From Hypanus sabinus (lineage: Eukaryota), in contig NC_082730.1 of assembly GCF_030144855.1 (NCBI RefSeq), positions 41,354,001-41,418,000 of the forward strand: DNA of 64,000 bases, read 5' to 3'. The translations under genes and the position numbers were made by a program. A model generated the notes under the pieces. That model was given only the letters and a program-made list of their open reading frames with translations. It was not told where the DNA came from and searched no databases. Shown here one piece after another: positions 2,287-62,251 of this stretch (the first letter of the stretch is position 1; every line of letters starts with the position of its first letter).

Positions 2287-2468
2287 ACATTACATAAAAA
2301 TCTAAAATAAAATTGTATTGTAATGTTAGTGAGGGTACTCTTCAATGATTCAGAAAGTCTATTAATCTAACACCACCAGAGCCCCAAGGTTGCTGGATTG
2401 TCAGTTTTACTGCACATGATCTTTCCCATCCACCTAAGATGGCAGATTTGGACAAATAAACTCCCTTC
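2287..2468 (+). repeat. 182-bp direct repeat, copy 1 (pairs with 3826-4007)
   Basis: Ungapped manual alignment to 3826-4007, about 21 mismatches (~88% identity). Confidence 0.95.
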
Positions 2469-3825
2469 TTGTGTTACCTGATGAGGTAGCTGTAGCCTTT
2501 GGTCAGGAGTAGGTGTTGTCAGATGTTGCCCAAACTTCATTTAGTGTTTCAACCATTGACCAATGCACTCCCCGGCTGGTGGGTCAGCCGTGTTGGCCAA
2601 GTCTCTGCCCATCTGCTCCAGCTCAACTCCTCTCACCTGTTCCATATCCAGAAAGAGGCTCTTTCTGGTTCCCCCCATCCCGTGAGCTGCTTGGTTCTTG
2701 CTCTTTTCATCAAGGCCCGGAGCAGACACCAACCTCCATACTGACCTGCCGGGAACACTCTACAGCAGATCTCCATGGAAAATAGACACGTCTCCTATCC
2801 TTTGTCCCTGAACTCTTGGACTGAGGACTGGTACTTCAGGGCCTTCCTCTCGTGAGTCTCCTCACACCCTTCCTCCTTTGGTACTGTGAGATCCACCAGG
2901 ATTTCTTTCTTGTCTTCAGTGGACCACAGTGCAATGTTTGGTCGAAGTGTGGTTTGCACCACCTCCAGGAACTGCAGCTTCCTCACCAAATATGGGGAGG
3001 AAGCTGCCAATGTGCAGCAGATTGGACTTAGGCCTTTTTGATATGACTGGTGTGGCAACTGGCCTTGATGAAAATGACTGCTCTATTTGCCTCTCTGCCA
3101 GCTAATCTCTTTTTTATGGCTCACTTTCGGCCCGATCTTGTTTTGACTCCTGCTTGGTTTATTAGCTTGTCATCAGAGCCCCTCAGTGTAAACACAACTC
3201 TACACTTTTCCAACTTGAACTCTTCCACTAATGATGACAACAGGAGCTGTAGCTGGCCTGATCTTATGTGGAACCCCACTGAAGAAAAACTTGTGGGGGG
3301 GAACCCCAGCAAGCTCTCCAGGTGCCTTCTATTGTGATCATGGGGAACCTATACACTGTGAAACACCAGACCATCCTTGGCAGAAGACCATGCTTGTACA
3401 ATCAAGTTTTAAGTTTACCAGGGAGTCTGGTTTAGTTGATCTTCTTCAGTCTGCTTTACAGTACAGGCGATTTTGGTGCTGTCTGTCATTGCTGCACTAA
3501 ACCCCTTTCCAAGGCACTTTACTGGGTTGTCCTCTATGGATGGAATGACTTCTCCCTGTACTTGAAGGACTGAACTTGCTAGTAACCTTGCCCCTTTTGA
3601 TCACCATGCATCTGGACTTACAGGCCGTGAAGGTAATCCTAGCCCAAGTAGCTACGTTGTCCAGGGTTTCCAATACCCGTCTTGCTTGGACATGGGTTAC
3701 AGTGGTAACTGTGATGTCATCCATGAAAGCCCATATTGCAGGTTGTTGGATGCTGGGCTCCAACACTGGGCCTTGGGTTACATCTGCTGCTGCTGCTGAT
3801 ATGAGGAGGTCCATACCCATGACAG
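2469..3825 (-). mobile_element. HERO-like non-LTR retrotransposon with restriction-like endonuclease, 5'-truncated and internally deleted
   Basis: Minus ORF 3497-3829 has RT motif AFMDDITVTT; 3121-3312 has QLQLLLSSLVEEFKLEKCR; 2795-3058 has TLRPNIALWS...LVDLTVPKEEGCEETHERKALKY, a decayed RPD...ELTVPWE...K..KY RLE motif. Confidence 0.85.
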
Positions 3826-4007
3826 ACATAATTTAAAAAGCTGAAATAAAACTGTATTGTATTGTTAATGAGGGTACTCTCCAATAATCCAGAAAATCTA
3901 TTAATCTAACACCACCAGAGTCCCAAAGTTGCTGGATTGCCAGTTTTACTGCACATGATCTTTTCAATCTACTTGAGATGGCACATTTGGACAAATAAAC
4001 TCCCTTC
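3826..4007 (+). repeat. 182-bp direct repeat, copy 2
   Basis: Matches 2287-2468 without gaps; abuts the 5' truncation point of the HERO-like element. Confidence 0.95.
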
Positions 4008-61544: not shown

Positions 61545-62251
61545 TGCCTATTGCCTTGTTAATTAATTAATTAATTATTGTACTGCCCTGCACTGTTTTG
61601 TGCACTTCACAAAACAGTCCTGTGTCCTGTGTAGGTCTGTAGTCTAGTGTAGTTTTTGTGTTGTTTTACGTAATCTAGTGTCACCTTTAGTTGTCTCACA
61701 TAGTCTAGTGTAGTTTTTGTGTTGTTTTACGTAATCTAGTGTCACCTTTAGTTGTCTCACATAGTCTAGTGTAGTTTTTGTGTTGTTTTACGTAATCTAG
61801 TGTCACCTTTAGTTGTCTCACATAGTCTAGTGTAGTTTTTGTGTTGTTTTACGTAATCTAGTGTCACCTTTAGTTGTCTCACATAGTCTAGTGTAGTTTT
61901 TGTGTTGTTTTACGTAATCTAGTGTCACCTTTAGTTGTCTCACATAGTCTAGTGTAGTTTTTGTGTTGTTTTACGTAATCTAGTGTCACCTTTAGTTGTC
62001 TCACATAGTCTAGTGTAGTTTTGTGTTGTTTTACGTAATCTAGTGTCACCTTTAGTTGTCTCACATAGTCTAGTGTAGTTTTTGTGTTGTTTTACGTAAT
62101 CTAGTGTCACCTTTAGTTGTCTCACATAGTCTAGTGTAGTTTTGTGTTGTTTCATGTAGCACCATGGTCGTGGAGGAACATTGTTTTATTTTTACTGTGT
62201 ACTGTACCAGCAGCTTATGGTCGAAATGACAATAAAAAGCGACTTGACTTG
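61545..62251 (+). mobile_element. LINE 3' UTR fragment (Rex1-like) with (GACTT)n tail, carrying the minisatellite
   Basis: Ends GAAATGACAATAAAAAGCGACTTGACTTG; interrupts the RTE-related element. Confidence 0.6.
61640..62158 (+). repeat. 61-bp minisatellite, ~8.5 near-identical copies
   Basis: Unit TAGTCTAGTGTAGTTTTTGTGTTGTTTTACGTAATCTAGTGTCACCTTTAGTTGTCTCACA starts at 61640, 61701, 61762, 61823, 61884, 61945, 62006, 62066, 62127 (partial). Confidence 0.98.

Follow-up and report, generated by a model that had tools for sequence, protein, structure and literature searches.

The locus and its direct repeat

The region analysed here, referred to as the window, is a stretch of 64,000 nt from Hypanus sabinus (contig NC_082730.1, positions 41,354,001 to 41,418,000). 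It contains a decayed minus-strand fragment of a non-LTR retrotransposon with a restriction-like endonuclease (RLE), about 1.36 kb in length, between two direct copies of one and the same sequence (Table 1). The initial annotation had described these copies as an ungapped repeat of 182 bp with about 88% identity, and the alignment indeed gave 182 nt, 88% identity and no gaps; 15 of the 21 mismatches are transitions. When the copy number of the unit was checked, as had been proposed, by a search of the animal's own genome (4.04 Gb), only two matches were obtained (2 candidates, 2 scored), both at this locus on NC_082730.1; a missing match in such a search is not proof of rarity.

Table 1 Features of the truncated element and its flanks in the window
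Feature	Position	Strand	Basis or remark
Probable duplicated host DNA, copy on the 3′ side of the element	2287..2468		Repeat alignment and two genome matches
Four extra bases between the truncated 3′ end of the element and the duplicated DNA	2469..2472	-	Alignment to other copies
5′-truncated copy of an RLE non-LTR retrotransposon	2473..3825	-	Family positions ~1807-2544 and ~3051-3710 of ~3740
Decayed restriction-like endonuclease motif RPN...DLTVP...K	2834..2944	-	Read in translation
Junction of an internal deletion of ~0.5 kb	3114..3117	-	Comparison with the family
RT catalytic motif AFMDD	3716..3730	-	Read in translation
Probable duplicated host DNA, copy at the 5′ truncation point of the element	3826..4007		Microhomology: the first 3 bases match the element as well

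The two motifs on which the fragment had been recognised are both present. The RT motif AFMDD is as described, and the stretch that carries it is 56% identical to a fish RLE-LINE protein. For the RLE stretch, identity to that protein is 59%; the motif of this stretch is decayed, as claimed, but the letters are those given in Table 1 and not RPD...ELTVP...K. Outside CpG, the copy differs from the family majority by 9.8%. Its 5′ truncation is at family position ~1807, where element and flank have 3 bases in common, and judged from the coordinates its internal deletion should have removed the zinc-knuckle region, which is still kept by another copy, L133.

The window copy is also truncated at its 3′ end and lacks the last ~30 nt of the family: it ends at GGTAAC (2473), and other copies continue as GGTAAC-TGAAGAGAG...GATGCAAG. 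Of the exact abutment postulated at 2468/2469, the repeat side stands, as the repeat does end at 2468, but the element ends at 2473 and four additional bases lie in between. The start of the target, GAAGGGAG, resembles the missing element sequence TGAAGAGAG, and internal priming of the window copy on this microhomology is therefore likely. On the other side, the junction postulated at 3825/3826 was correct in placing the repeat at the 5′ truncation point, but bases 3826-3828 are ambiguous, matching element and repeat alike. Since, in addition, 5 of the 21 mismatches lie in the first 18 positions of the repeat, its length is 179-182 bp, or somewhat shorter at this end. The repeat is AT-rich, with a GC content of 35% vs 51% in the element, which would be expected to reduce its divergence.

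Apart from this locus, the window has a CR1-type LINE on the plus strand (1-2146) that lacks the last ~40 nt of its family, including the short tail repeat, and a young tandem array of a 61-bp unit (61640-62152; 8.4 copies, 99% matches).

A dispersed RLE family that may belong to the HERO clade

The family to which the window copy belongs is ~3.7 kb long, its majority sequence has open stretches in one frame, and the domain order is zinc-finger-like N-terminus, RT, zinc knuckle and RLE. RVT_1 and zf-RVT matched fragments of L133 under Pfam's curated cut-off and RVT_1 was above the cut-off in the homologues P0001 and P0006; the best PDB matches of P0006 are R2 proteins. The RLE motif in the window copy and in L133 was recognised by eye, and so was a zinc-finger-like C..C...H motif in the N-terminal fragment of L133. 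Pfam scans of four L133 fragments and of two homologues (907 and 1052 aa) gave no APE-type domain. As in the R2 group (RLE), there is a single ORF with an RT followed by a C-terminal PD-(D/E)xK endonuclease, a common 3′ end, variable 5′ truncation and no LTR-type ends. An intact 3′ end was found in 159 of 176 sampled copies, although the sampling favours such copies, and the 5′ ends are scattered along the entire family length. The copies differ by ~10% from the family majority (9.0% outside CpG), which points to one old burst.

The family is not of the Dualen type, which is characterised by APE plus RLE endonucleases, nor of the R9 type, in which nearly every copy has a long target-site duplication (TSD) of constant length at one specific rDNA site. 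The flanks downstream of the copies are unrelated, and in 62 intact ends the base composition is mixed from the fifth base onward; as in the HERO clade, there is mostly no sequence-specific target. According to the accessible text of the papers describing it, this clade has a single ORF with RT, then zinc knuckle and RLE, no fixed target (PMC4640811, PMC3636483, PMC9004415) and a host range of fish, lancelet, sea urchin and other invertebrates (PMC9004415). The ORF architecture of the present family is the same. Among the matches listed, the closest named homologues are from teleosts, the lancelet Branchiostoma and bivalves, with 53-58% identity over the RLE-side fragment; this fits the host range in PMC9004415 but is not diagnostic, and none of the 16 + 120 homologues listed is named HERO. 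Altogether, architecture, missing target site and host range would fit membership in HERO.

A peculiar junction was seen at the complete 5′ ends. Among the 176 insertions, 15 extend to the 5′ start of the family (L034, L035, L058, L133, L136, L141, L142, L148, L189, L205, L209, L212, L241, L251 and L280), and all of them are preceded by about 20-580 nt of the element's own 3′ sequence. The spacing after the 3′ terminus is constant in 14 of them and partly deleted in L034; three of the 3′ segments start at family positions 3159-3167, and none extends further than the lengths given, though ~70% of copies survive each 600 nt of interior. This suggests either a terminally redundant template RNA, which we take to be comparable to that of HeT-A/TART or Penelope, or precise template jumping. 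In the four loci scanned, Rfam gave no ribozyme match at the junction at E 0.5 or below. The same 3′-to-5′ join is present in a contig from a metagenome collection (L358:1-3829), which has 76% DNA identity to the family over 3.7 kb; for a distant host this is high and suggestive of horizontal transfer. Another relative, L353, is circularly permuted with a terminal overlap of 265 nt.

Long duplications flank a minority of insertions

Further copies were found either through their similarity to the window copy or with 3′-terminal and internal motifs, and were fetched with their flanks. Similarity gave 848 candidates at first look, and altogether 176 unique insertions were analysed at both junctions, after exclusion of 32 loci that were duplicates or superseded by longer fetches and of 12 without a 3′ end or sufficient flank. 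Direct repeats of at least 44 bp that touch both junctions were found in 13 of these insertions, including the window; without it, the number is 12 of 175, or 6.9% (95% interval 4.0-11.6%). The comparison of flanks proposed initially thus has a mixed outcome, with long duplications at other copies but ~93% of the copies without any detectable one. The lengths are about 44, 52, 61, 70, 108, 110, 112, 113, 133, 137, 182, 225 and 544 bp with a median of 112 bp (n=13); the boundaries were taken from alignments and are accurate to several bases, less so in the 52-, 61-, 113- and 225-bp cases. Long duplications of variable length recur in this family at a few percent. The phenomenon as such has precedents; new are its rate within a family and the controls.

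In an alignment anchored at the junctions, 12 of 176 insertions scored at least 40, where 8000 mismatched flank pairs would lead one to expect 0.22; the 544-bp case lies outside the window of this test and was counted from a separate repeat comparison. After removal of the long cases, the anchored flanks of the remaining copies had no excess of short matches over mismatched pairs, and a regular short TSD was rejected (32/176 at a score of at least 16 vs 16.8 expected plus the long cases), with TSDs below ~12 bp being undetectable at this age. Several candidates were not counted as TSDs: L055 and L198 are matches of 68-76% to a distant repeat copy, those in L042, L204 and L219 touch one end only, L189 is a 16-bp match with a score of 32, and the 357-bp match of L268, which lies at the 5′ end but begins 750 nt beyond the 3′ end, is ambiguous. 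Relatives from metagenomes (27 loci, 12 of them self-compared) were mostly contigs without flanks.

The rate varies with the way of sampling. All 13 long duplications are in inserts of at least 800 nt (13/121 vs 0/55, P=0.01), and the frequency was 7/34 among copies found by similarity, 3/106 by the 3′ motif and 2/35 by the internal motif (similarity vs both motifs, 7/34 vs 5/141, P=0.002). An estimate with the least bias would therefore be closer to 3.5% for all copies and to 5.7% for long inserts.

Were the duplications made when the elements inserted? The divergence of the repeat pairs, pooled over nine pairs, is 14.8% (155/1045 columns), and the mean pairwise non-CpG divergence between elements is 15.7% (59 copies). 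Paralogous host repeats allowed an empty-site test that was informative in 2 of the 13 cases, the window being among the other 11: for L068, seven copies of the host repeat at other loci span flank, one unit and flank, and for L059 one match at another locus does so. The agreement of the two divergences together with these single-copy empty sites makes it likely that the duplications arose at insertion. If they had nothing to do with it, the element must have landed between tandem units that already existed, or a later rearrangement must have duplicated the flank. The divergence of the window pair, 11.5%, is in line with such an origin in that it falls below twice the element's own divergence (19.5%), the comparison that had been suggested as a check; it is low, yet within chance (P=0.07), and the AT-richness of the window repeat would lower the expected value. 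Of four further pairs (12.0%, 14.0%, 14.9% and 7.1%), the last, the 544-bp pair of L188 (G000:C26:103597750-103603750), is clearly younger than the family clock allows (P=1e-9); it may have undergone conversion or have arisen later. An unrelated duplication would, however, have to abut both junctions exactly at 13 independent loci, and it is at odds with the pooled clock and with the single unit at the L068 and L059 empty sites; we regard it as quite unlikely. At L188 the ends of the duplication are near-identical, which suggests gene conversion or constraint.

In view of the two genome matches and the unrelated flanks of family copies, we rejected the idea that the 182-bp unit is part of the element or a repeat that serves as its target. 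A pre-existing repeat as target, the alternative offered in the initial annotation, is not supported by the one unit at the L068 and L059 empty sites either. The TSD geometry noted initially is borne out: the unit is host DNA, the ages agree and the same geometry recurs in 12 of 175 other copies, the single-unit empty site being seen in L068 and L059 only. Most probably, then, the 182-bp copies are host DNA that was duplicated at insertion, as in a minority of the family (13/176, about 44-544 bp) that is likewise flanked by long duplications.

The length of 182 bp had led to the proposal that the second strand is cut ~180 bp away, at about one nucleosome repeat, much like R9 with its constant 126 bp. 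R9 of bdelloid rotifers is an rDNA-specific RLE-type non-LTR element for which, as far as the citing papers report, one TSD length of 126 bp is given (Gladyshev and Arkhipova 2009, via PMC6895275 and PMC9977147). The window case would fit a fixed stagger of this size, and the lengths do cluster to some extent, but near 110-135 and not near 180 bp (scan P=0.01-0.07, depending on the null). Only 1 of 13 lengths is within 160-210 bp, the range is 44-544 bp and ~93% of copies have no duplication; together, these largely rule out a fixed ~180-bp stagger as such, and we give the idea hardly any credence. The present family resembles R9 in being an RLE-type non-LTR element with TSDs above 100 bp, 6 of the 13 lengths being 108-137 bp and 4 of the 13 108-113 bp. 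Unlike R9, it is a dispersed family with a more than tenfold variation in length and with no duplication at most copies. The clustering at 108-137 bp is a lead only.

Opening of the second strand: element or host?

The distance between first- and second-strand cleavage is held to set the TSD, as stated in the accessible text of PMC6895275, PMC2666801 and PMC5223499. For the present family we envisage that the element nicks one strand and that reverse transcription starts there; in the window copy, a short stretch that resembles the target would have served as the starting point, ~30 nt inward in the RNA. The majority of events would be closed at or near the first nick (blunt, deleting or with a very short stagger), so that no duplication can be detected. 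For a few percent of events, we assume that the second strand was opened far off and at a variable distance (~180 bp in the window), the intervening DNA being copied to both sides as the staggered gap was filled in. The distant nick could be the work of the element's RLE or else of host repair or replication. The truncated 3′ end of the window copy departs from the textbook TPRT junction.

Long TSDs as a minority are known from other LINEs, and a long-TSD class is defined in PMC4245944, as far as its available text goes. According to the text available for each, TSDs above 100 bp were seen in up to 10% of recovered human L1 events in HeLa cells and in the majority in NER-deficient cells (PMC5223499), and the zebrafish element ZfL2-2 had a 1228-bp TSD in 1 of 25 inserts (PMC2666801). 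The likeness to the present family lies in a minority class of variable long TSDs, ascribed to a distant second nick and occurring at a similar rate. The L1 and ZfL2-2 cases are, however, de novo events of APE LINEs in cultured cells with a usual TSD that is short, whereas ours belong to an RLE LINE for which no usual TSD was detectable, and they are old insertions fixed in the genome. In Dualen-4b_cRei of Chlamydomonas reinhardtii, the accessible part of PMC9977147 reports duplications above 50 bp in more than half of the insertions, with a median of 900 bp, and attributes them to the dual RLE + APE endonucleases. These are also variable, very long duplications around LINE insertions, but here the frequency is ~7%, with a median of 112 bp, and the Pfam scans gave no APE domain. 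For HERO, no long TSDs were found in the openly accessible literature, as covered by paper listings and selected passages.

Such precedents raise the possibility that the duplications, although made at insertion, are a host-repair outcome common to all LINEs, an ordinary long tail of TSD lengths that requires no special property of the family. This agrees with our preferred explanation on the insertion step and differs from it on family specificity. The L1 and ZfL2-2 data speak for it, and the truncated 3′ end with microhomology in the window copy fits priming at a break. A younger CR1 family of the same genome (56 + 39 insertions) was used as control, and no complex-sequence repeat touching both ends was found there. 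Three CR1 candidates were set aside: L159 has a microsatellite on both sides, L329 is a 68% match between two old CR1 copies and L349 has a short flank. In L348 (G000:C19:15379257-15384299), a 73-bp direct repeat (86%) surrounds a short piece of CR1 3′ end together with ~146 nt that are not CR1; it is possibly the long TSD of a chimeric insert and makes up the one case in a count of 0-1/95. The contrast to 12/175 in our family is significant with 0/95 (P=0.010) or 1/95 (P=0.037) but not with 2/95 (P=0.15; Fisher). For inserts of at least 800 nt it does not reach significance (12/120 vs 0/34, P=0.07), and for the motif-sampled copies alone, with their 5/141, it does not either (P=0.08 vs 0/95, P=0.41 vs 1/95), as a general repair outcome would have it.

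Two other observations run against such a general outcome. Within 1.27 Mb of loci, six low-copy direct repeats abut family copies, whereas ~298 other repeat blocks at the same loci gave at most one weak bracketing candidate (L267, 56 bp, low complexity). Second, the family has an A/G variant at position 3607, with G in 51 of 161 copies, and long duplications are associated with G (9/51 vs 3/104 with A, P=0.002; P=0.055 by permutation over 127 sites). In overall closeness to the window copy, TSD-bearing copies differ little from others (4.8% vs 3.9-4.1% shared variants). At L193 (G000:C41:28810554-28816554), a local direct duplication of ~480 bp (82%) brackets a repeat-filled stretch of 670 nt that adjoins, but does not enclose, a family copy. 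All in all, family specificity is suggested, not established; a contribution of the family or of a sub-lineage is likely, if weakly supported, and a purely general host-repair origin is plausible but short of probable.

Among long inserts with G at family position 3607, 9 of 37 have a long duplication. It is tempting to speculate that HERO-type RLE LINEs, or a sub-lineage of them, no longer have a fixed second-strand site, that they usually leave no duplication and that in up to a quarter of events the second strand is opened at a distant nick, preferably ~110-135 bp away; we consider this rather doubtful. If it were true, the preferred distance would be an element-encoded, possibly chromatin-set stagger common to RLE clades and on the scale of the 126 bp of R9, and such insertions would be a routine origin of 50-500-bp host duplications in the vertebrate germline. 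If, on the other hand, the rate is no higher than in other LINEs, the long duplications are an ordinary repair tail.

Of all the steps of LINE integration, cleavage of the second strand is understood least. A dispersed RLE family whose insertions are flanked by a long duplication or by none at all offers many independent natural read-outs of second-strand opening, beyond the single-site elements R2 and R9. Furthermore, such elements seed local duplications of 50-500 bp that are overlooked by standard TSD finders.
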